From: an uncultured Planctomycetales bacterium | Lineage (GTDB): Bacteria > Omnitrophota > Gorgyraeia > Zapsychrales > Fredricksoniimonadaceae | Length of the DNA: 64,000 nt | Assembly: GCA_964572155.1 (NCBI GenBank) | Contig: CAZNDZ010000001.1 | Coordinates: 1,274,786-1,338,785, forward strand | Direction: 5' to 3' | Part shown: piece after piece, positions 3,009 through 44,129 of the stretch | How the letters are laid out: every line of letters begins with the position of its first letter | Position numbering within the stretch: position 1 is the stretch's first letter | The notes under the pieces: generated by a model | Databases searched by the model: none | What the model was told of the DNA's origin: nothing | What the model saw: only the letters and a program-made list of their open reading frames with translations | Made by a program: the position numbers and the translations under genes

Positions 3009-4556
3009 TTAACTCAGTGATGATAATTCAGGCAACGGCGCATTTTTCTGATTTGAAACAGGGCGCGGTTGACGATTTAAAAATTTAGCTTCCAGCGTCT
3101 TATCTTTTTTCTCACCCTTGATAAAACGGATAAATTTTTGAATAAAATATTGGGTGAAAGCTTTTAAACCATGGACCTTGCGTAAAAAATCACCCATGGT
3201 GTTGATTGAAATAAGCATACGCCACATTTGCTTCGGACGCAAATAAAATTCTTTAAGGCCAATGTCAATATGTTCGTCGATGTCTTTATGGGAAAACTGA
3301 GGATAAGACAATAAGGTGCGTTGTTCGCCCGTCTTGGTTAACCAATCACGCCAATCTTTGGCTAAGATGTAGCCATTTTCTTTAGCCCACTTATACAGGG
3401 AAGTGCCAGGATAAGAGGCAACACCGGTAATTTGAATGGTATCAAGGGGCATGGATTTCGCAAAGTCGATTGTTTTGCGTGCAGAAGCCTTGGTTTCACC
3501 TGGAGCGCCAATCATGAAACAGCCATGGATGGTAAAGCCTAAGCGGTGAGCTTCTTTAGAATATTCACGGGCCATATCAACGCTAACACCGCCTTTGCGG
3601 ATAACGCGTAGATTTTCATCGGTCCCAAATTCAAAACCCGTCATGAGCATACGGCAACCAGCTTCTCTCATTAAGGGGAGTAAACTTAAATCGGTGTTGA
3701 CGCGCATATTGCAAGACCAAGAAATCTTCTTATTGATGCCTTTAGCAATGATCAAGTTGCAAACTTCCTTTACGTGCTTGGCTTCTGCTGCAAAGGTGTC
3801 TGTTTCAAACATGATCTCGCGGATCTGAGGATGAAGCTTGATGTCGTGTTCCATTTCAGCGACGACAAGTTCAGCCGTGCGATTGCGCAATTTATAACCA
3901 TACATGAGTTGTGGATCGCGGCAGAAGGTGCACGCATTGTTACAGCCACGACCAGTGATCAAAGTTAAGAATGGGAATTTCTTACCACCATCAGGATACC
4001 ATTCCGGCTGAATCAATTGCCAAGCTGGAAATGGCAGTAAGTTAACATCAATATCAGGACGGGGAAGGTTGCGAACAACGGTCCCATTTTTAATCCAACA
4101 TAAACCTAAATTTTTATCATCAGCAACACCGTTGGCTAAATCAAGCAAGGTGTAGTCATATTCTCGAGGGAGAATATAATCAACAACACCGCGACCGATT
4201 TCAAACGTATTATCAATTTCAGCCGTTGCATGTTGACCAACAAAGACAACGCGACAACCTGTTTTTTCTTTGATGATTTTAGCTTGTTCAATATCGGCAT
4301 AGATCGAAGGTGTTGTCACATGCATGACCAAAAGGTCAGGCTTGAGGGCAACGGTTGTTTCAATCGATTGTTCTTCAGTAAAATTGCGTGCTGCAGCCTC
4401 GACAAAATGCGTGTCATGCCCAGCATCAAGCAAGACTTGCGCCGCAGTGAGGAGATATTCCGGATGACGTTGCACACGCCCACGAGACTTAGCAGCCCAA
4501 CGCGCGACACGTACAAAGTTTTCACCAAAAGAGGGATTAAGAATTACGACTTTCAT
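3009..4556 (-). CDS. B12-binding-domain radical SAM protein (class B radical SAM)
   Basis: N-terminal cobalamin-binding Rossmann region followed by CNNACTFC (CxxxCxxC) radical SAM core; probable start MKVVILNP at 4556 (track ORF extends to 4628). Confidence 0.8.
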
Positions 4557-5315: not shown

Positions 5316-8300
5316 ATGTTCAAGTCTTTAACTCATATTGGGCTAGCCCTAGCCCTAATTTTACCCCCATGGCCATTAACACATGCGCCAATCATCAAAC
5401 CATCATCAAATCTCTCATCAGCGACGATACCTGTGCTTGATGGTCAGCGTATAACACCCACAAGACCATTAATCTTTTCAGACACACTTAACGGTTTGAA
5501 TGTCACAACGACGATCACGCAAACTCAACAGCAATTAATTCAAGAAGTGCAGATGACTGGTTCAAAAGAGTCCGTACATTTCCGATTGATTCTCATTCCT
5601 AATGAATCAGAAGAATCATTCCTGCGTAGCCAAACACCTAAGTATTTGGCGAAGCAGGATGAATTTATCTTTTCACAAAAAATTCAAGATAATAAGATTT
5701 TAACCAAAGAATTAATTAATACTAAAACTCCAAATACAAAAAGCGGTAGTATTTATACTTGGCGATTGCTGACGGATGATCCTTTGGTAATGATGGATTT
5801 ACAAAGCACATCGGATGGCGGAGCGGATATTATTCGGGTGTTTGACGAACAACGTATTATCGTAGCGCATATTAAGCCTTTTATCTATTGGACAAAAACC
5901 CATCACCAAAAGGTAGCGGCAATCCAATTATCTAAAGATGCTTTGCAGAATTCTGTCATAGAATTATTAATCCATGAAGATCCAAGTGCTTATCCGTTAA
6001 CAATTGACCCTTCAATTGCATATGGCCAATGGTTGGGGGATGGAACTACAATAACAACTCGTGTTTTGGCTATAGCACTTGAACCTGTAACAGGAGAAAT
6101 ATATGCTGGCGGTTCAGCATCAGGGGTGATGGCAAATATTGGCACCATGGTAGGCACATTTAATGGTGAGACAAATGGCTTTGTTGTTGAAATAATAGGG
6201 GGTAATCCGCCGGCTATCAATTGGTATCATGATCTTGATGGTGCAGGGAATGATACAGTTCTAGCATTGGCTGTAAATGGTGATGAAATTTATGCGGGGG
6301 GGTATGCTAATTCATCAGATTCATGGGATAGCGCAGGATCAAATGTGGGTACAATGACTAATTCTGGTAATCCTGGAGAAGGGTTTATTGTTGAAATTGC
6401 GGATGGCGCGTCACCTACATTAAGCTGGCATATGTGGTTAGGGGGTGTTGGAGGTGATGCTGTTCGTGCTTTATCTATTAATGGCGATGAAATCTACGCA
6501 GCAGGAAGCAGTAATTCATCAGATTCATGGGATACCGCAGGTTTAGAGTTAGGCACATTGACCAATACATCTAACGAAGGCTTTGTTGTAGAAATTGCGG
6601 ATGGCGCGCCGCCTACGATCAATTGGCGTATGTGGGTGGGAGGGGAGGGCAGTGATATAATTTATGCGTTAACTATCAATGGTGATGAAATTTACGCAGG
6701 TGGATCTTCTACTTCAACAGGTTCTTGGGAAACATTAGGATCAACAGTTGGGACATTAACCAATACATCTGCCGAAGGCTTTGTTGTAGAAATTGCTGAT
6801 GGTGCGCCGCCTTCTATCAATTGGTGTATGTGGGTTGGTGGCGTTGGAATTGATATGGTTTATAGTTTAGCGGTTAATGGTGATGAAATTTATGCAGGAG
6901 GATATACTGATTCTTCTGCATCATGGGATACGGCAGGGTCGACGTTTGGAACTGTGACAAACACATTGACTAATGGTGAAGGCTTTGTGGTCGAAATAGC
7001 CGATGGTGGCCCGCCAACCTTGAATTGGCGCATGTTTATTGGTGGCAGGTCAGCTGAGATTATTAATGCTTTGAGTGTTAATGGTGATGAGATTTATGCC
7101 GGGGGGTATAGTAATAATTCAGCCAGTTGGGATACTGTTGGATCAACAGTTGGAACTCATACAAATAGCGCAACATCAGAAGGCTTTGTTGTAGAAATTA
7201 CGGATGGTAGTCCGCCTTCTTTAGCTTGGCGTGCGTGGATTGGTAATAATTTCACTAATAGTGCTGTTAATGGGTTAGCTATTAATGGCGATGTAATTTA
7301 CGCAGGCGGGTATACACAAGTTGGGACATTCAATTTGATGGAGACATTTACGGTTATTTCTGGTGCCGACACTCAGGGTCCTGGATGGATTGCACAATTA
7401 GATGATGCTGGTCCTCCAACTTATTACTGGTTACAGGCTTTTGGTGGAATTGGATCTTCTGCTGTGCGAGGAGTAGCGGTTAATGGGGATGAGATTTATG
7501 CAGGAGGGGAGGCATATTTGCAGAGTCCGGGTACTTTTTTTGAAGTTGGGACTGCGAACAGTCAGTTTTATGAAGCCTATGTTGTAGAAATTGCGGATGG
7601 CAGCACACCGTCCATAGTTTGGCGTATGTGGCTAGGGGGATCTGGGTATGATTTTCTTCGTACTTTAATAGTTAATGGCGATGAAATTTATGCGGGGGGG
7701 TATGCTAATTCATCAGATTCATGGGATACCGCAGGATCAAATGTGGGTACAATGACTAATTCTGGTAATCCTGGAGAAGGGTTTATTGTTGAAATTGCTG
7801 ATGGATCTCCACCTTCTTTGACATGGCGTATGTGGTTAGGTGGCGTTGGAAGTGATGTGGTTTATAGTTTAGCGGTTAATGGTGATGAAATTTATGCCGG
7901 GGGGTATACTGATTCATCAGATTCTTGGGAAACTGCAGGATCAACAGTGGGGACATTGACAAATACATTGGCTACTGGTGAAGGATTTGTGGTAGAAATT
8001 GCTGATGGATCTCCACCTTCTTTGACATGGCGTATGTGGTTAGGTGGTGTTGGAAGTGATGCGGTTTATGGTTTAGCGGTTAATGGTGATGAAATTTACG
8101 CAGGTGGATTTTCTAATTCATCAGATTCTTGGGATACTGTAGGATCAACAGTTGGGACATTGACCAATACATCTAACGAAGGCTTTGTTGTAGAAATTGC
8201 TGATGGTGCGCCGCCTTCTATCAATTGGCTTATGTGGGTTGGTGGTCTTGCACAAGACCAGGTTCGTGTTTTAAGTATTAATGGTGATGAAATCTATGCG

Positions 8301-8849
8301 GGTGGCACAACAACTTCATTATCCAGTTGGGATACCGCAGGATCAACAGTTGGAACATATGGAAGTACAGGTCAAGAAGGCTATATATTAGAAATCGCCG
8401 ATGGAGGACCACCAAATCTTGATTGGCTTATGTGGATTGGGGGTGATGGCGCTGATTATGTATTTACTTTAGCTGTTAATGGTGATGAAATCTATGGGGG
8501 TGGTGAGTTCAATTCATCCGATTCATGGGATACCGCAGGGTCTGAGTTGGGGACATTTACAAATTCAGGGACTTTCAGTGCATATATTGTAGAAATTGCG
8601 GATGGCGCGCCACCTTCGTTGACATGGCGTATGTGGATAAGTAGTGCTGGGTCTGACGCTGTATTAAATTTAACTGTTAATGGTGATGAAGTTTACGCAG
8701 GGGGGGTGATATCTTCATCTTCGCAGGGCCTTGAAGGGGTTTATCAAGGCACAAGATACGATTCTTCATCTGCTGCGTTTATTGTTGAGATTGCGGATGA
8801 TGCGACGGCGGCTAGTGTCAATGCATTGTTTTTTGGGACTGGGTTTTAA
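5316..8849 (+). CDS. secreted SBBP-like beta-propeller repeat protein (~16 tandem ~65-aa repeats)
   Basis: Signal peptide; repeated unit W-MWLGG-GSD-VY-LAVNGDEIYAGGYS-SSDSWDT-GSTVGTLTN-EGFVVEIADG-PPSL resembles the SBBP (PF06739) beta-propeller repeat; ~195-nt DNA periodicity with several near-identical copies. Confidence 0.75.
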   Translation: MFKSLTHIGLALALILPPWPLTHAPIIKPSSNLSSATIPVLDGQRITPTRPLIFSDTLNGLNVTTTITQTQQQLIQEVQMTGSKESVHFRLILIPNESEESFLRSQTPKYLAKQDEFIFSQKIQDNKILTKELINTKTPNTKSGSIYTWRLLTDDPLVMMDLQSTSDGGADIIRVFDEQRIIVAHIKPFIYWTKTHHQKVAAIQLSKDALQNSVIELLIHEDPSAYPLTIDPSIAYGQWLGDGTTITTRVLAIALEPVTGEIYAGGSASGVMANIGTMVGTFNGETNGFVVEIIGGNPPAINWYHDLDGAGNDTVLALAVNGDEIYAGGYANSSDSWDSAGSNVGTMTNSGNPGEGFIVEIADGASPTLSWHMWLGGVGGDAVRALSINGDEIYAAGSSNSSDSWDTAGLELGTLTNTSNEGFVVEIADGAPPTINWRMWVGGEGSDIIYALTINGDEIYAGGSSTSTGSWETLGSTVGTLTNTSAEGFVVEIADGAPPSINWCMWVGGVGIDMVYSLAVNGDEIYAGGYTDSSASWDTAGSTFGTVTNTLTNGEGFVVEIADGGPPTLNWRMFIGGRSAEIINALSVNGDEIYAGGYSNNSASWDTVGSTVGTHTNSATSEGFVVEITDGSPPSLAWRAWIGNNFTNSAVNGLAINGDVIYAGGYTQVGTFNLMETFTVISGADTQGPGWIAQLDDAGPPTYYWLQAFGGIGSSAVRGVAVNGDEIYAGGEAYLQSPGTFFEVGTANSQFYEAYVVEIADGSTPSIVWRMWLGGSGYDFLRTLIVNGDEIYAGGYANSSDSWDTAGSNVGTMTNSGNPGEGFIVEIADGSPPSLTWRMWLGGVGSDVVYSLAVNGDEIYAGGYTDSSDSWETAGSTVGTLTNTLATGEGFVVEIADGSPPSLTWRMWLGGVGSDAVYGLAVNGDEIYAGGFSNSSDSWDTVGSTVGTLTNTSNEGFVVEIADGAPPSINWLMWVGGLAQDQVRVLSINGDEIYAGGTTTSLSSWDTAGSTVGTYGSTGQEGYILEIADGGPPNLDWLMWIGGDGADYVFTLAVNGDEIYGGGEFNSSDSWDTAGSELGTFTNSGTFSAYIVEIADGAPPSLTWRMWISSAGSDAVLNLTVNGDEVYAGGVISSSSQGLEGVYQGTRYDSSSAAFIVEIADDATAASVNALFFGTGF

Positions 8850-8876
8850 AAACCGTGACACATTGGGTTTATAAGG
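8848..8876. repeat. direct repeat copy 1 (aaaaccgtgacacattgggttt + ataagg) flanking the DUF433/DUF5615 cassette
   Basis: Exact 22-nt match to 9560-9582. Confidence 0.7.
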
Positions 8877-8929
8877 TTGTCTTTAATGTGCGGTTGACGA
8901 GGGATGTTTGCCGTGTTAAACTTATTCTT

Positions 8930-9166
8930 ATGACTGAACAAACAATGCATAACTACATTACTGCTGACCCAAAAATTTGTTTCGGGAAACCTGTGTTTAA
9001 AGGTACTCGTATTGCTGTTTATTTGGTTCTAGAGTTGTTAGAAGCAGGGGTTACTGTTAAAGAAATCATCAGCGCGGATTATTATCCTAATCTAACGATG
9101 AAACATGTCCAAGCTGCACTACATTATGCTGTTCGTACAGCTCAAAACCAACACTCCTTTGTGTAA
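8930..9166 (+). CDS. DUF433 domain protein (putative antitoxin)
   Basis: ITADPKICFGKPVFKGTRIAVYLVLELLEAGVTVKEIISADYYPNLTMKHVQAAL is the canonical DUF433 signature; internal start at 8930. Confidence 0.7.
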   Translation: MTEQTMHNYITADPKICFGKPVFKGTRIAVYLVLELLEAGVTVKEIISADYYPNLTMKHVQAALHYAVRTAQNQHSFV

Positions 9167-9504
9167 TGCGTTTTATTGTTGATGAAAATATTCCAAGATT
9201 GCTTGTTATAAAATTGATTGAGCTAAAGCATGATGTCGTCCTTGCTCAACGTAATAAATCAGATATGGCAATTGCTCGGAAAGCTTTAACAGAAAAACGC
9301 ATTATCTTGACGTTAGATAAAGATTTTACAAATATAATCTTATTTCCTCCATCAAGGTTTAACATACTTTGTGTCGATATACACCCGCCAGAAAAGAACG
9401 TGATTACAAATACTGTGATTGATTTTATTGCAAAGATCAAACCATCCAACTTTAAAGGTCTGATTATTTTGAGCAAAGATGGGTATATTCGGCAAACAAA
9501 GTAA
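9166..9504 (+). CDS. DUF5615 (PIN-like) protein, partner of DUF433 (putative toxin)
   Basis: MRFIVDENIPRLL…; abuts the DUF433 gene (stop/start share one base), the standard DUF433-DUF5615 pairing. Confidence 0.65.
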   Translation: MRFIVDENIPRLLVIKLIELKHDVVLAQRNKSDMAIARKALTEKRIILTLDKDFTNIILFPPSRFNILCVDIHPPEKNVITNTVIDFIAKIKPSNFKGLIILSKDGYIRQTK

Positions 9505-9520
9505 GACAGAATTGTTTAAG

Positions 9521-9540
9521 ACCGCAAATTGCGGTTTTAA
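9521..9540 (+). terminator. weak hairpin (accgcaa-a-ttgcggt) followed by TTTT after the DUF5615 gene
   Basis: Read directly; short AT-poor loop, modest stem. Confidence 0.3.
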
Positions 9541-9559
9541 AAAAGATTCTACGATGCAG

Positions 9560-9588
9560 AAAACCGTGACACATTGGGTTTTAAGGTA
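9560..9588. repeat. direct repeat copy 2 (aaaaccgtgacacattgggttt + taagg)
   Basis: Matches 8848-8876. Confidence 0.7.
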
Positions 9589-9650
9589 AACTTTGAAGGT
9601 TATATAATTTTTGAAAATGTTTGATGAATTTGGTAGTATTAATCAGTGTT

Positions 9651-9728
9651 AACCGATTCCCCAAATCGGTCTAGTTTGCATGTGTAGTGAAATCCCCCGA
9701 AACTTAGGTTGAGTGTTTTTATTAATTT
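9651..9728 (+). promoter_or_regulatory. conserved upstream element copy A: 7-bp-stem hairpin with CCCCA loop, 19-nt gap, AAATCCCCCGAAACT box, T-rich + ATTAA
   Basis: Paralogous to 38573-38646. Confidence 0.5.
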
Positions 9729-9748
9729 CTTTATGTAGGGGGTAAACT

Positions 9749-10021
9749 GTGCAAATTAAGAAACGTGTTACTAAAAAATCTGCTGTGCTTTTTCCTGTAG
9801 AAATAATTCAAAGTAAGATTTATCTAATCCGTGGACAGAAAGTGATGCTTGATAGGGATTTGGCGGAGTTGTATGGTGATTCGGTGAAACGTCTTAAGCA
9901 ACAGGTTAAGCGAAACTTAAAGCGTTTTCCGGGCGATGACTTTATGTTTGAATTGACATGGGAAGAGACCGAATCTTTAAGGTCACAATTTGCAACCTTA
10001 AAAAGAGGCAAAAACAACTGA
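9749..10021 (+). pseudogene. ORF6N-domain (KilA-N-related DNA-binding) protein, truncated after ~90 aa; GTG start with AGGGGG RBS
   Basis: IRGQKVMLDRDLAELYGDSVKRLKQQVKRNLKRFPGDDFMFELTWEE…RSQFATLKRG is the ORF6N N-terminal motif; full-length members continue well beyond the point where this ORF stops. Confidence 0.5.
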
Positions 10022-10094
10022 CGTCTTGGATTCTTTGATCCGAAAAGTGTTGAAAAAGATACCAAATCTAAGCGAAAATAAATTAAGATAAGTT

Positions 10095-10787
10095 ATGTCA
10101 AAATTATTTCTTATTCCAAATGCAGTTGAAGAAACTCGAAAAATACCTTGTGGTTTTGATCCGAAGATTATTTCTCATTTGCGTGTGTTTTTTGTTGAAG
10201 AGCCAAAGGCGGCGCGAGCTTTATTGAAATCAATCTTGCCTGACTTTCCTTTATCCGAATGCCAATATCATGATTTAAATGAGCATACGACAGCTGTAGC
10301 TGTTAGAGAATATGGAAAAATTATTAAGTCTCACGATGTGGGGATTATTAGTGAATCTGGGTGTCCGTGTGTGGCTGACCCAGGGGCTGATTTAGTTTTA
10401 TTGGCTCATCAATTGAATGTTGAGGTTGTGCCTTTGGTTGGTCCGTCGTCGATCTTGCTGGCATTAATGTCCAGTGGGCTTAATGGGCAGAATTTTGCGT
10501 TTAATGGGTATTTGCCTAAAGATGAAAAAGATCGGGTGTCGAAAATTAAATTGTTGGAGCAGCGCGCGGTGAAGGAAGGACAAACGCAGATTTTTATGGA
10601 TACGCCGTATCGCAATACCAGCATGATGGAGCAATTGTTAAAGACTTTGGATGCCAAAACATTATTATGTGTGGCCTTAGATATTCAAGGAGCAGATCAG
10701 ATGATAAAGACGCAGCCTGTCAGCGAATGGCGAAAAGTGAATCTTCAATTGCCCAAGAAACCAGCTTTGTTTATAATAAATAAATGA
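10095..10787 (+). CDS. tetrapyrrole-methylase-fold SAM-dependent methyltransferase (RsmI/YraL-like)
   Basis: Conserved blocks (…SESGCPCVADPGADLV…VPLVGPSSILLALMSSGL…) align with the RsmI fold. Confidence 0.6.
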   Translation: MSKLFLIPNAVEETRKIPCGFDPKIISHLRVFFVEEPKAARALLKSILPDFPLSECQYHDLNEHTTAVAVREYGKIIKSHDVGIISESGCPCVADPGADLVLLAHQLNVEVVPLVGPSSILLALMSSGLNGQNFAFNGYLPKDEKDRVSKIKLLEQRAVKEGQTQIFMDTPYRNTSMMEQLLKTLDAKTLLCVALDIQGADQMIKTQPVSEWRKVNLQLPKKPALFIINK

Positions 10788-10806
10788 TTCTCAAAATGGA
10801 GGAAAA

Positions 10807-10992
10807 ATGATATCGATTAAGAAAAAAATGACAAAGATTATTGATGAACAGCCAGAAGATAGTTCTTATGAAGAGATTTTAAAAGAATTGGCTTTCGAAC
10901 GTATGGTTGAAAGAGGGTTAGCAGATTCTAGATCAGGAAAAACAGTTTCTGATGCACAATTAAAGAGAAGGATTAAATTGTGGCAGAAATAA
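10807..10992 (+). CDS. small antitoxin-like protein (addiction-module component) upstream of the ParE-like toxin
   Basis: 61 aa, acidic N-terminus; 13-nt overlap with the RelE/ParE gene. Confidence 0.5.
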   Translation: MISIKKKMTKIIDEQPEDSSYEEILKELAFERMVERGLADSRSGKTVSDAQLKRRIKLWQK

Positions 10993-11282
10993 GATGGACA
11001 AAAGAAGCAGAGAGTTGGCTTAAAGATATACATGATTATATTGCAACTGATAACCCGCGCGCTGCGATGAAAGTAGTTGAATCGATTTACGATAATGTGC
11101 AGTTATTAAAGAAACAACCAAACATAGGGCATCGTTATCATCGATATGCTCAAATAAATATTCGCGTCTTACTTCATGGTCATTATCGTATTGCGTATTT
11201 AATTAAAGATGATGAAAATATTGATATCTTGGGAGTGTTTCACGGATCTTTAGATATCGATCGGTATTTATTTACGAATTAA
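10980..11282 (+). CDS. RelE/ParE-family type II toxin
   Basis: …RWTKEAESWLKDIHDYIATDNPRAAMKVVESIYDNVQLLKKQPNIGHR…YRIAYLIKDDENIDILGVFH is the typical ParE-like pattern. Confidence 0.7.
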   Translation: MAEIRWTKEAESWLKDIHDYIATDNPRAAMKVVESIYDNVQLLKKQPNIGHRYHRYAQINIRVLLHGHYRIAYLIKDDENIDILGVFHGSLDIDRYLFTN

Positions 11283-11294
11283 TAGGAGAATCAT

Positions 11295-38700: not shown

Positions 38701-38970
38701 ATGGATAGAATTCGCTTCAGCCCAATTAAAGATTTTCTAATAAAGCAGAAATATGGCGTCTCATTTGAAGATGTATTAAGTGGTGAATTGGTTGATGAAA
38801 TTGAACATCCAAAGAGAACTAATCAGAAGATATTGATTTTTGAATATAAGAATTACCTTTGGTCGATTCCATTTGTAGTTGAACACAAGGGGATTTTCTT
38901 GAAAACACTGTATCCTAGTCGTAAATTAATGAAACGATACAAAAGAGGAAAAAATGATAAAGAAATATAA
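38701..38970 (+). CDS. BrnT-like (DUF497) toxin, second copy of the family
   Basis: …KQKYGVSFEDVLSGELVDEIEHPK…ILIFEYKNYLWSIPFVVEHKGIFLKTLYPSRK matches the BrnT pattern; overlaps downstream RHH gene. Confidence 0.55.
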   Translation: MDRIRFSPIKDFLIKQKYGVSFEDVLSGELVDEIEHPKRTNQKILIFEYKNYLWSIPFVVEHKGIFLKTLYPSRKLMKRYKRGKNDKEI

Positions 38971-39208
38971 TTTATCCAAATATGAGCAATCTATTGAAAA
39001 CACTATTGATGAATACGTTCCTGTATCTAGAGCTAAGTTTGAAGCAACGAAGAAAATGTTCGAAGCTAGAAAAAAGAATGCTGTTTTAAATATTAGAATC
39101 AATCAAGGTGATTTAGATAGTCTTAAGGACAAAGCAAAGAAATTAGGTGTTAAATATCAAACTTTTATTACAGAAATCCTTCATAAAGTAGCCATCACAG
39201 GTGAATAA
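38954..39208 (+). CDS. BrnA-like RHH antitoxin
   Basis: …[33 protein letters not shown]…. Confidence 0.55.
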
Positions 39209-41015: not shown

Positions 41016-41156
41016 ATGAAGATCACTACTTTAACGATCATACTATTAATAGGCATCTTTACATTTTCTCAATTGGCCCAAGCAAAAGGGCGAACTGGGA
41101 GTCATCGGACTTATCATGGTCATGGGAAGGGGAGTTTCTATAAGGGTGGAAAATAG
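41016..41156 (+). CDS. small secreted peptide (46 aa): signal peptide + Gly/His/Lys/Tyr-rich 23-aa mature region
   Basis: AAAAGGAG RBS 6 nt upstream of ATG; MKITTLTIILLIGIFTFSQLAQA|KGRTGSHRTYHGHGKGSFYKGGK; not in ORF track (under 60 aa). Confidence 0.4.
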   Translation: MKITTLTIILLIGIFTFSQLAQAKGRTGSHRTYHGHGKGSFYKGGK

Positions 41157-41172
41157 GGAATGGAGTTTCAAT

Positions 41173-41658
41173 ATGTTTGAACAATTCAGAAATCATCCAG
41201 AATTGAAATGGAATGCTTCTCCAGCTGGACAATTCTATTCAGACGCTGATAGGTTGAATATAAATATTAATTTGAAAGATTTCACTCTAGAAAGAATAGT
41301 TGATTTAAGAGAACAGGTTGAGAATGAGGGCTCTGCTAAGCTAATGTTAATTGGAAGCAGTAACACAAATATATTTGTATATGGTCCAAATAATTTAATA
41401 AATCTTTTGTATCATACATTACAGAGATACAAGGCAAGATTCTGGTCCAAAATAATTAATATTACTTTAAACGATCATCAGAATTGCGCTAACTTGTTAG
41501 TTCCTACGAAATGTGATCCATGGGTTATTGATAAACTTGAATTAAAAGAGATGAAGAGGGGGGCGGTTACGCCATGCACTACTACTTCCGATTTAGAAAA
41601 AATTTATGAAATATGTGTTCATTGTGAGAATTTTTTAAAAGAAAGGGATCTTCGTTAA
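41173..41658 (+). CDS. hypothetical protein, first large gene of the TIR cassette
   Basis: No recognisable domain; track ORF starts at 41116 but would overlap the peptide gene, so an internal start (41173) is assumed. Confidence 0.45.
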   Translation: MFEQFRNHPELKWNASPAGQFYSDADRLNININLKDFTLERIVDLREQVENEGSAKLMLIGSSNTNIFVYGPNNLINLLYHTLQRYKARFWSKIINITLNDHQNCANLLVPTKCDPWVIDKLELKEMKRGAVTPCTTTSDLEKIYEICVHCENFLKERDLR

Positions 41659-41666
41659 GGTCTAAA

Positions 41667-42554
41667 ATGGAAAAAATATTTCAGTATGATGTAACCTTAA
41701 GTTTTGCAGGCGAAGATCGTAAATATGTAGAGCAAGTTGCTCAAAAACTCAAGGCGCAAGAAATTAAAGTTCATTATGATGAATTTAATGAAATTGATGC
41801 TTGGGGGAAAAATTTACCAGAAAATTTTGACCGTATCTATCGAAAAGACTCTCGTTTCTGTGTCATGTTTATTTCCGGAGACTACGCTAAGAAAGCTTGG
41901 CCCACCTTTGAAAAAAGAAGCGCTTTAGACCGAGAAGTTATCGAAAATGGTTATATTCTTCCAGCTCGTTTTGACGATACAGAAGTTTTAGGAATTCCGC
42001 CTTCCAAGTCTTATATTGATCTTCGTAAATATAGCCCTAATGAATTCGCTGAACTGATTATTAAAAAAATAAGTAAGACTCAATCAATAAAAAATGTGTT
42101 TGAAACAACAGCTTTTCGCCGTCCCAAGATCACCAAATCATTCGATCCTTATAAAGAATCACAAGTTTGGGTAGAATATCTGATTAAAGAGTTAGAGAGT
42201 CGTTGTGAAGATTCAGGAATATCTTTTAGTCATTTTCTTCGCGATGGTAAACAATGTTTAAGATTTGTAATTAACGGCAAACCTGTTTATTCCATTAATA
42301 TTAAATCAGGCTCTCTTTATTTGGACCAAGGATTAAGTTTTAGTTATGCGCATGGAGAAATGTCAGCAATTCTAGATGGCATTAATGCATTTGGTGAATT
42401 TGATTGGAATAAAGACAGGGAATGTATAGTTTTAAAACTTAATGATTTTAGTGTTTTTTCTCGGTCATCTAGCGAACGGCAAGAATTTACGAAACTAGAA
42501 TTTCTTGATTACATTTGGGAAAAAGTTTGTAACGCCACAGAAGAAAAAATGTAA
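41667..42554 (+). CDS. TIR-domain protein with unknown ~150-aa C-terminal domain
   Basis: YDVTLSFAGEDRKYVEQVAQKL…IKVHYDEFNEIDAWGKNL…SRFCVMFISGDYAKKAWPTFE closely follows the DVFLSFRGEDTR … S-x-NYA-S-WCL-EL TIR pattern. Confidence 0.75.
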   Translation: MEKIFQYDVTLSFAGEDRKYVEQVAQKLKAQEIKVHYDEFNEIDAWGKNLPENFDRIYRKDSRFCVMFISGDYAKKAWPTFEKRSALDREVIENGYILPARFDDTEVLGIPPSKSYIDLRKYSPNEFAELIIKKISKTQSIKNVFETTAFRRPKITKSFDPYKESQVWVEYLIKELESRCEDSGISFSHFLRDGKQCLRFVINGKPVYSINIKSGSLYLDQGLSFSYAHGEMSAILDGINAFGEFDWNKDRECIVLKLNDFSVFSRSSSERQEFTKLEFLDYIWEKVCNATEEKM

Positions 42555-42613
42555 GGAAAGACTCCCCATATTAATGAGCAGCTCTTACATAACTAATAAG
42601 AAAATCTATTTAA

Positions 42614-43372
42614 ATGTACCCTAAGCATTTTTTTGAACAATTTTGGGAATCTGAACAACGAAATGAATTATTTGTTTGTATGCCATTTCATAGTTCTTTA
42701 AATTATCGTTTTAACCAAGTAATTAAAGTCGCTGCTAAAAAGGCAGGTTTCGATAACGCCATAAGAGTTGACGAGGATACCTCAGGAAATGTAATAATCA
42801 CAAAAATTTTAGATGGAATTGCAAATTCAAAAATGGTTTTAGTTGATTTATCAGACGATCCAAGTTGCAAAGAACGACATGTAAATGGAAATGTTTTATA
42901 TGAAGCAGGTATCGTTCATGCTATTAGAGAACCTGATGCATTAATAATTGTACGAGATCAAGGTCCTGAAGGTGTCGATTTTGATATTCGAGGATTTACA
43001 ATTAATACGCCGCCTAATAATGTTATTGAAGAAAAATGGTTGATTGAATTATTGAAGAATAGTCTAGAAAATTATCAATGGTTTATTGGAAAGCGAATAA
43101 AGTCTACGGCAGAATTAATTGATGATATTAGTTTGCTTCTTATGGCTAAATATGGAGGTGATAAGAATACTTCAACACATTTTAATAGTGCTAATATGGA
43201 TGCAAAGTATAAGATATCTATTATGAGGCTTTTAGAATTAGGAATTTTAAGATTTCAAACTGCAAGAAATAATAACCCTTTAGAGCATGCTTATCATTGG
43301 ACTGATTTTGGTTATGAAGTAATGAAATATCTTCACATAGAAAGGCAAAATCCTGGTATTCGCTTATCATGA
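42614..43372 (+). CDS. nucleoside 2-deoxyribosyltransferase-like / SLOG-class Rossmannoid domain protein with unknown C-terminal domain
   Basis: LFVCMPF… then …MVLVDLSDDPS…NGNVLYEAGIVHAIREPDALIIV mirrors the NDT (PF05014) signature ADLSG…NPNVMYELGYAHALGKPV. Confidence 0.55.
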   Translation: MYPKHFFEQFWESEQRNELFVCMPFHSSLNYRFNQVIKVAAKKAGFDNAIRVDEDTSGNVIITKILDGIANSKMVLVDLSDDPSCKERHVNGNVLYEAGIVHAIREPDALIIVRDQGPEGVDFDIRGFTINTPPNNVIEEKWLIELLKNSLENYQWFIGKRIKSTAELIDDISLLLMAKYGGDKNTSTHFNSANMDAKYKISIMRLLELGILRFQTARNNNPLEHAYHWTDFGYEVMKYLHIERQNPGIRLS

Positions 43373-44049
43373 CAACATTAGAAATAATTGATAATGTTAA
43401 AGAGCGTGGGTGGACATTTCGCCAAAGATTTAAAGGGAAAAGTAATAAAATCCTACTTATTTTTTCAAAAAGAAGTGCCGAAGATTATGGAGAAAGGAAT
43501 TGTGTGAATTTTTATGCTCTTAAAATCGATCACGCAAATAGCTATTCTGATATTTATTTTAAATATGCAATTACAGCGAGTGCTTTAGCTACACAAAAAA
43601 TAGCAGATATAGTAGGTGATCCTGAAGCTTATATTATTAATTCCGGCTTGTTTCGTTTTAAAAAATTATTAAAAGATAGCGATGAAGTTCGTAAGTTCCC
43701 TGATTTATTGCTGAGTAGCGATTCTTCTGAATCGGAATATGCTATAGATTTACTTCAAGGATTAGATATAGAAATAAATAGAGTACGTTTTGAAGTCCTT
43801 GATTTTTTAAGACGTAATAAATATTTGGGTAGAGAATCATTAAATCTTATAGAGATTGCAGATGTGATTTGTTCAGACCAAACTATAGTTGATACCGTTT
43901 ATCGTGACTTTGAAGAAAATGGCCTTATTAAAGGAGCTTACGGAAATAAAGGTGTAAAAATTACTGTAGAAGGTGAAAAATATTTAGAAAAAATTAAAAA
44001 TGAGCAAATGGGTATAAACTTTGGTTCAGAAGGAACCCATAAATGGTAG
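43369..44049 (+). CDS. hypothetical protein, last gene of cassette (start overlaps previous stop)
   Basis: No recognisable domain; C-terminal region could be wHTH-like. Confidence 0.45.
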   Translation: MTTLEIIDNVKERGWTFRQRFKGKSNKILLIFSKRSAEDYGERNCVNFYALKIDHANSYSDIYFKYAITASALATQKIADIVGDPEAYIINSGLFRFKKLLKDSDEVRKFPDLLLSSDSSESEYAIDLLQGLDIEINRVRFEVLDFLRRNKYLGRESLNLIEIADVICSDQTIVDTVYRDFEENGLIKGAYGNKGVKITVEGEKYLEKIKNEQMGINFGSEGTHKW

Positions 44050-44129
44050 AGTAAGTCGCAATATTAACTTCCTATAATATATGTTATGTTAAGTAGTTAT
44101 ATAGGAAAGTGCTAAAATAGGCAAAAAAT

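Follow-up and report, generated by a model that had tools for sequence, protein, structure and literature searches.

How does a toxin-antitoxin pair that brings no mobility gene of its own come to sit in a bacterial chromosome? Toxin-antitoxin pairs count as mobile, but for the many 'naked' chromosomal ones, found without a transposase or integrase nearby, the entry route is rarely visible. We address the question for a DUF433/DUF5615 gene pair of an uncultured Planctomycetales bacterium, using a stretch of 64,000 nt (contig CAZNDZ010000001.1 of GenBank assembly GCA_964572155.1, positions 1,274,786 to 1,338,785 of the forward strand), which we call the window and whose first letter is position 1 in the coordinates below. 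The pair, the direct repeat that brackets it and the neighboring genes discussed here lie on the + strand, immediately downstream of a gene encoding a 1177-aa repeat protein. We consider it probable that the pair entered this site by a horizontal insertion that duplicated a native target sequence, and that it is now fixed.

A direct repeat flanking the two-gene cassette had been noticed in the initial annotation of the window, and this arrangement is borne out. The exact 22-nt sequence AAAACCGTGACACATTGGGTTT occurs at 8849-8870 and 9560-9581, with no further copy in the 64 kb; a search of both strands allowing up to 3 mismatches returns the same two matches only, compared with 0.00 in 100 dinucleotide-preserving shuffles. 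When one 1-nt indel is allowed, the repeat grows to AAAACCGTGACACATTGGGTTT(A)TAAGGT, giving a left copy of 29 nt (M1, 8849-8877, AAAACCGTGACACATTGGGTTTATAAGGT) and a right copy of 28 nt (M2, 9560-9587, AAAACCGTGACACATTGGGTTTTAAGGT), and this single indel is the sole difference between them. Beyond the 28-29 nt limits, local alignment on either side is no better than that of shuffled sequence; the duplicate is therefore sharply bounded, and a longer, degenerate duplication is ruled out. It is also the window's only non-coding direct repeat of at least 18 nt within 5 kb, the one further pair (17/18) being located inside genes. The left copy shares the last base of the TAA stop codon (8847-8849) of the repeat-protein gene. 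The right copy begins 55 nt and ends 83-84 nt past the DUF5615 stop codon (9502-9504), and the 84 nt first given as the distance to the second copy thus applies to its end and not to its start.

The repeated sequence (hereafter the motif) ends in a dyad, AAAACC...GGTTTT, around an 11-nt center; the two copies show no significant secondary structure of their own (z = +1.15 and -0.58). An exact 20-mer of the repeat has no match in genome_contigs and none in metagenome_contigs, collections without this species and genus in which the closest RsmI match is 68% identical. Judged by the names that distant homologues bear, the organism probably falls in Omnitrophota or a neighboring group. The initial annotation had asked whether the repeat is a common intergenic motif, and neither the window nor either of the two large collections searched shows it to be one. 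The 17-nt core has three matches in viral contigs, none longer than 17 nt, which we attribute to chance.

The two copies enclose 682 bp (8878-9559) that contain an entire toxin-antitoxin module, promoter and hairpin included. The GC content of this insert is 35%, compared with 40% for the downstream rsmI gene and 43% for the repeat-protein gene. A sigma-70-like promoter (8894-8922) consists of the hexamers TTGACG and TAAACT separated by 17 nt, with TG before the second hexamer; promoter-like matches in the region are no commoner than in shuffled sequence. The first gene (8930-9166) encodes a 78-aa DUF433 (COG2442) protein, the predicted antitoxin, which matches Pfam PF04255, a three-helix DNA-binding domain, over the whole profile (E = 8.4e-22, profile positions 1-56 of 56) and PDB entry 2GA1, a solved structure of this domain (E = 3.3e-5), with a weak match to a chain of the Mycobacterium tuberculosis pair VapBC49 (PDB 5AF3). 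The second (9166-9504) encodes a 112-aa DUF5615 PIN-like protein, the predicted toxin (PF18480, E = 1.3e-14; the PIN_10 and Mut7-C matches are weak and below cut-offs), for which no relative of solved structure is detectable by sequence. These Pfam matches agree with the domain assignment made at the outset. The two genes are small, adjacent and co-oriented, antitoxin first, and the toxin ATG overlaps the antitoxin TAA by 1 nt (TAATG, 9164-9168), as in translationally coupled genes. In an alignment of the DUF5615 protein with 10 homologues (all that a word-indexed search of 5.8 billion proteins gave), D6, E7, D33 and D51 are invariant; these acidic residues are presumably catalytic, as expected for a PIN-like nuclease of this family. 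By the full-length domain matches, the acidic residues and the 1-nt overlap, both genes are intact.

A strong hairpin, TTTAAGACCGCA-AAT-TGCGGTTTTAAA (9515-9541), follows the toxin gene and is the main helix of a 78-nt stretch (9515-9592; -19 kcal/mol, z = -3.0), which confirms the small hairpin that had been read as a terminator inside the cassette. Its 3' arm holds a run of four T; a simple terminator scan, which needs five T after the stem, did not call it. The hairpin is likely the terminator of the cassette. No terminal inverted repeats are present at the insert ends (TGTCTTTAAT... and ...CTACGATGCAG). About 30 nt inside each end there is an inverted match of 13/15 (p ~0.005), formed by TTTGCCGTGTTAAAC (8907-8921), located between the two hexamers of the promoter, and the hairpin's 5' arm (9514-9528) read as its reverse complement; we do not trust this subterminal inverted match on its own, and it could be an operator, a subterminal feature of an element, or chance.

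Judged by its sequence, the gene pair is a further member of the predicted type II toxin-antitoxin family that joins DUF433/COG2442 with a PIN-family gene (Makarova, Wolf and Koonin 2009, PMC2701414), a pairing that is common in cyanobacteria (PMC4963859). The likeness to this family extends to the two domains, their order, the small overlapping genes and the presence of a promoter, whereas the toxin found here comes from the DUF5615 branch of PIN-like domains.

The comparative test was anchored on the conserved downstream gene, which encodes an RsmI-like 16S rRNA methyltransferase (10095-10787). The closest relative found outside the species is a 13-kb contig, L011, whose RsmI is 76% identical and whose gene order is that of the window, from the repeat-protein gene through rsmI, acnA, GST, NUDIX and YkuD genes to the leucine genes. 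A spacer of 81 nt (AATTAGGTTTTTAAAAACCGCGACACATTGATATC...) separates the end of the L011 repeat-protein gene (3027) from the start of rsmI (3109). This spacer holds one copy of the motif (GGTTTTTAAAAACCGCGACACATTG, a 16/17 match to AAAACCGTGACACATTG) together with the adjoining palindrome described below, and no DUF433/DUF5615 pair; nor does L011 contain the ORF6N gene that follows the cassette in the window, or the parDE-like pair between rsmI and acnA. By our own arithmetic, the chance of a 17-mer with at most one mismatch in an 81-nt spacer is ~5e-7. The prediction of the initial annotation, a relative whose empty site holds the repeat once, is thus borne out. The motif and palindrome are almost unchanged in L011 while the adjacent coding DNA is only ~75% identical, a degree of conservation which suggests that the motif itself served some function. 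It might have belonged to a site that overlaps the rsmI promoter or have marked the end of the upstream transcript, and both possibilities fit either mechanism considered below; a promoter-like -35 hexamer of L011, TTGATA (3055-3060), shares bases with the motif's end.

In the relatives whose RsmI is 68-71% identical, rsmI and then acnA come immediately behind a radical-SAM gene of the opposite strand, and neither the repeat-protein gene nor the motif is present. Given this empty spacer in the more distant relatives, the region between the radical-SAM gene and rsmI is one that accumulates accessory DNA. It was therefore filled stepwise, the repeat-protein gene with its terminal motif arriving first, followed by material unique to the species of the window. 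We infer that the direction of the event was insertion in the window's species and not loss in the relative.

Cassettes homologous to the insert occur in other contexts. In contig L010 the toxin is 76% identical and the order is dnaJ, a zinc-ribbon gene, DUF433, DUF5615; in L106 the toxin is 57% identical and the cassette adjoins a large gene on the other strand. DNA similarity to the window cassette is limited to the coding region, and the three cassettes with available DNA (window, L010 and L106) all have TTGACG ahead of the antitoxin ATG, at a distance of ~36-38 nt. The motif is absent near the L010 and L106 cassettes, even at 4 mismatches, as is any flanking direct repeat of at least 9 nt, which speaks against a motif travelling with the cassette; with toxins 57-76% identical, these homologues are distant and the comparison is a weak one. 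Since the homologous cassettes have TTGACG and not the motif, the recurring unit runs from promoter to stop codon, and the motif would belong to the target. On this comparison, a target duplication is more likely than a recombination core that the cassette brought along. The initial annotation had left the choice between a target duplication and a recombination site; an insertion is supported in either case, and the motif-free cassettes would speak for a target. As for a vehicle, a tblastn search with the toxin gave no match in 72,556 plasmids or 50,697 phages, and a plasmid or phage carrier finds no support there.

Nine retrieved loci of the same species (L001-L006, L100 and L103 among them) carry both repeat copies unchanged, with an identical cassette. 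Some loci are views of the same contig, and the nine correspond to seven distinct contigs from seven sequencing runs. Every conspecific contig that spans both copies carries both, and no excision allele is seen; L001, L003, L004 and L100 pass through both copies without a branch. Of the proposed mobile cassette, past insertion is supported by L011; the conspecific contigs hold no excision allele that would speak for current mobility. Because no such allele occurs in any contig, we read the two copies as scars and not as working sites. The difference of one indel between them suggests either that the event is recent or that the motif is under constraint. Compared with the window (8783 to ~11700), L002/L103 and L105 show 3-8% divergence inside acnA. 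Strains that differ in acnA are 100% identical over the accessory block (both toxin-antitoxin pairs, ORF6N and rsmI), and this suggests that the block has recently spread by recombination or that acnA is a mosaic.

The account that we find most convincing is as follows. A compact, self-sufficient type II toxin-antitoxin module would have been acquired horizontally. Its point of entry would have been native sequence already in place right behind the repeat-protein gene, within the variable region that separates the radical-SAM gene from rsmI. Integration would have doubled ~28 nt of the target, leaving one copy on each side of the 682-bp insert, as expected if the strands were broken ~28 nt apart, with one break at the center of the palindrome GGTTTT/AAAAACC, and the gaps then filled in. 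This could have been the work of a trans-acting enzyme; a foreign fragment could also have been taken up during break repair or by template switching. Today the module would be a fixed chromosomal addiction or stress/defense module, in which, going by what is known of the family, a labile antitoxin would repress the promoter and neutralize the nuclease.

Several points weigh against this account. There is one informative relative, L011, and it is distant (RsmI 76% identical); its spacer has nothing recognizable as the final 11 nt of the repeat (GGTTT(A)TAAGGT) and so does not attest the whole 28-nt target. A single copy would also be left if two copies had recombined in the L011 lineage and the cassette had been lost, although such a loss would still require an original insertion with duplication. 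A target duplication of 28 nt is far longer than those of ordinary transposases, and the insert lacks terminal inverted repeats. Since the ORF6N stretch, also missing from L011, is not enclosed by the repeats, no fewer than two events must be assumed. Finally, the count of motif copies covers the 64-kb window of a 1.34-Mb genome.

How does the locus compare with known mobile and site-specific systems? In transposition-type events, too, a native sequence is doubled around the insert, and the single-copy empty site in L011 is what such an event leaves elsewhere; the 28-nt length is atypical. Ordinary insertion sequences duplicate 2-14 bp of target and casposons ~14-15 bp, while the repeats duplicated by Cas1-Cas2 in CRISPR arrays measure 23-50 bp. 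No casposase or cas genes are present in the window, and Pfam scans (ORFs of at least 120 aa, plus a precomputed table for 11.3-20.8 kb) detect no recombinase, integrase or transposase, in agreement with the initial annotation, which had seen no integrase or transposase adjacent to the cassette. The lack of a transposase among these ORFs and of terminal inverted repeats at the insert speaks against an insertion sequence, transposon or MITE. An element of attL/attR type would have an identical core on both sides that is single in the empty site, as observed, but also a recombinase within the element, which here holds two toxin-antitoxin genes and nothing else. A tRNA-targeting island was rejected, as the window contains no detected tRNA or tmRNA gene and an Rfam scan of it gave no match.

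Chromosomal integrons show a likeness in some respects. The Vibrio superintegron holds toxin-antitoxin cassettes, and the unit described here is likewise a ~0.7-kb toxin-antitoxin unit with its own promoter, bracketed by a repeat and followed by another small unit in the same orientation. In contrast to integron arrays, there are two copies only, each of 28 nt, and the repeat exists in a relative without the cassette. Sites of attC type measure 55-140 nt; the repeat of 28-29 nt has no GTTRRRY/RYYYAAC cores, the four cassette boundaries (TTTTA/AAAACC, AAGGT/TGTC, GCAG/AAAACC and AAGGT/AAAC) contain none either, and no integrase is encoded among the window's ORFs of at least 120 aa, so that together with the cassette's own promoter these features led us to reject attC.

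Integration by the Xer/dif system deserves attention since the window spans the replication terminus, as follows from a canonical dif site at the peak of the GC skew. This site, ACTTCCTATAA-TATATG-TTATGTTAAGT (44067-44094), lies between convergent genes, at ~44 kb, where cumulative GC skew peaks and gene orientation flips from + to -. It matches three dif sequences at 20-24 of 28 positions (24/28 being the match to Bacillus subtilis dif). Xer-dependent elements (IMEX) integrate at dif, and Acinetobacter plasmids carry dif modules, some of them with toxin-antitoxin pairs; like the locus studied here, these have 28-nt sites flanking a module without its own recombinase, and the terminus is in the window. 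Unlike them, the motif matches dif at only 12-15 of 28 positions, no better than other window sequence does, and the cassette (8.9-9.6 kb) lies 35 kb from the true dif. Xer/dif integration was rejected on these two grounds.

Accessory units in conserved spacers are the last class considered. Examples are ccdO157 between folA and apaH of Escherichia coli and the 'minimal mobile elements' of Neisseria, which, like the spacer before rsmI, are variable sites holding none, one or several units with no mobility gene attached. Their presence is explained by homologous recombination in flanking genes, and they are not known to carry a long target duplication, whereas a 28-nt duplication marks the junctions here. 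We found no account, in the literature searched, of a toxin-antitoxin cassette that bears a long target duplication.

The left edge of the insertion coincides with a second rearrangement. The initial annotation had placed a perfect palindrome, ggttttaaaacc, at the left arm of the repeat; a palindrome is present, but the actual sequence, GGTTTTAAAAACC, has one extra A. This near-palindrome, GGTTTT/AAAAACC (8842-8854, the slash marking its center), spans the stop codon of the repeat-protein gene, and its form in L011 is GGTTTTT/AAAAACC. In contig L005 (run DRR623197), window positions 10974-11003, which comprise the end of the parD-like gene and the first eight parE codons, are fused directly to 8847-10049. 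Contig L105 of the same run also begins at 10974 and continues normally into parE. The two contigs have exactly 30 nt in common and then diverge, and thus mark a true branch in the assembly graph, given that Logan assemblies are assumed to use 31-mers. Contigs L007 and L009, from two other runs, both terminate exactly at 11003. At least one sample thus holds the junction of 11003 with 8847 alongside the normal arrangement, and three or more probably do so. It represents either a tandem duplication or a circle of 2157 bp (8847 to 11003), with no microhomology at the joint. A separate 30-nt overlap, between the end of L005 (10049) and the start of L009 (10020), lies just after the ORF6N stop codon; it indicates another branch of the assembly graph and hence another allele, near the point where similarity to the region upstream of rsmI in L011 resumes.

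The left breakpoint of the junction (between 8846 and 8847) is 1 nt from the center of the palindrome (8847/8848) and 2 nt from the edge of the repeat (8848/8849). Two independent events thus cut the DNA within 2 nt of each other, which is a hint that the palindrome is a fragile, recombinogenic or enzyme-targeted site. A bolder version would make the palindrome and the 28-nt motif a working hot spot, at which an enzyme encoded elsewhere captures promoter-bearing cassettes; the ORF6N unit would have been captured first and the toxin-antitoxin pair afterwards, the platform would be unrelated to integrons or Xer, and the junction of 11003 with 8847 would be a present-day product of the same activity. 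We think this improbable.

Target duplication has to be weighed against a site-specific recombination system (attL/attR-, attC/attI- or Xer-like) of which the 28-nt sequence would be the common core and whose recombinase would be encoded elsewhere. Circular, promoter-bearing cassettes would then have been inserted, and the toxin-antitoxin pair, perhaps with the ORF6N unit, would represent successive captures. Sharply bounded identity is what a core would show, and the dyad at the motif ends with its 11-nt center would suit one; the motif is better kept in L011 than the surrounding DNA, suggesting function, a second inserted unit begins right behind the second copy, and the polymorphic junction falls 2 nt from the left edge of the motif. 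That junction nevertheless lies outside the motif, and not centrally, where a tyrosine recombinase exchanges strands. The ORFs of at least 120 aa in the 64 kb include no recombinase or transposase, the homologous cassettes have no motif at their flanks, the motif is not dif-like, the boundaries lack integron cores, and the cassette has its own promoter. There is also no third copy of the motif after the ORF6N unit and no excision allele in any sample. On this evidence we regard a recombination core as unlikely.

The near-identity of the motif and palindrome in L011, beside coding DNA that is ~75% identical, and the overlap with TTGATA would also suit a regulatory or 3'-end element of the resident genes, the second copy of which was kept as useful; each copy in the window lies 45-51 nt upstream of a promoter-like site. 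Such an element would leave a sharply bounded duplicate around foreign DNA unexplained, however, and the motif has neither significant structure nor an Rfam match, while promoter-like matches in the region occur at the frequency of shuffled sequence. As a complete explanation we find this very doubtful; as a statement about the target before insertion, it is compatible with horizontal insertion and target duplication. Coincidence or an assembly artefact can be given next to no weight, with no match in 100 shuffles and both copies present in seven independent contigs from seven runs; moreover, a repeat of 22-29 nt is shorter than the assumed 31-mers of the Logan assemblies, which excludes it as the cause of a mis-join.

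The surroundings of the cassette contain further accessory genes. The upstream gene (5316-8849) encodes a protein with ~12-13 tandem 66-aa repeats (pattern ...VNGDEIYAGG...SWDTAGS...GFVVEIADG...) and no Pfam match; it is seen in this species and L011 only and not in the more distant relatives examined. Logan assemblies break inside this gene. Downstream, a second stretch that is missing from L011 (9588-10094, GC 35%) starts directly after the second repeat copy and lies outside the repeats. It contains a promoter-like site (9611-9639) and the ORF6N-domain gene (9749-10021, 90 aa). We considered this gene as a truncated remnant, which is not supported, as its homologues are very widespread and many are equally short (78-110 aa).

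A second toxin-antitoxin pair (10807-11282), parDE-like and consisting of a 61-aa partner and a ParE/RelE-family toxin, sits between rsmI and acnA with spacers of 19 nt and 12 nt, and is not found in any relative examined. It has no comparable long direct duplication at its edges, where a perfect 9-nt inverted repeat occurs instead (ATGATTCTC / GAGAATCAT, 10784-10792 and 11286-11294). Farther away, two overlapping small ORFs of 89 and 84 aa (38701-39208), the second with weak matches to CopG antitoxins and BrnA, may be a third toxin-antitoxin pair; no flanking repeat was detected around them. A segment of 31% GC adjoining dif (41116-44049) encodes a TIR-domain protein (41667-42551) and three ORFs without a Pfam match, and may be a defense islet at the terminus. 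Overall, the Pfam scans described above show only housekeeping genes, three small toxin-antitoxin-like pairs and one TIR-domain gene.

That toxin-antitoxin pairs occupy conserved spacers without a mobility gene is known already; what is unusual, and instructive, is that the target duplication is long and that an empty site survives. With both junctions, the doubled target and this empty site preserved, the event can be retraced to the base. A duplication of 28 nt is incompatible with ordinary transposases and with simple homologous replacement, and points to widely staggered breaks or a recombination core, and the same few bases serve as the breakpoint of a second, polymorphic rearrangement. 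As a single event in an uncultured organism, the locus is a well-documented example and not a new principle. If this signature recurs at other cassettes in further genomes of the lineage, it would provide a testable mechanism by which small defense and addiction modules colonize the reduced genomes of uncultured bacteria.

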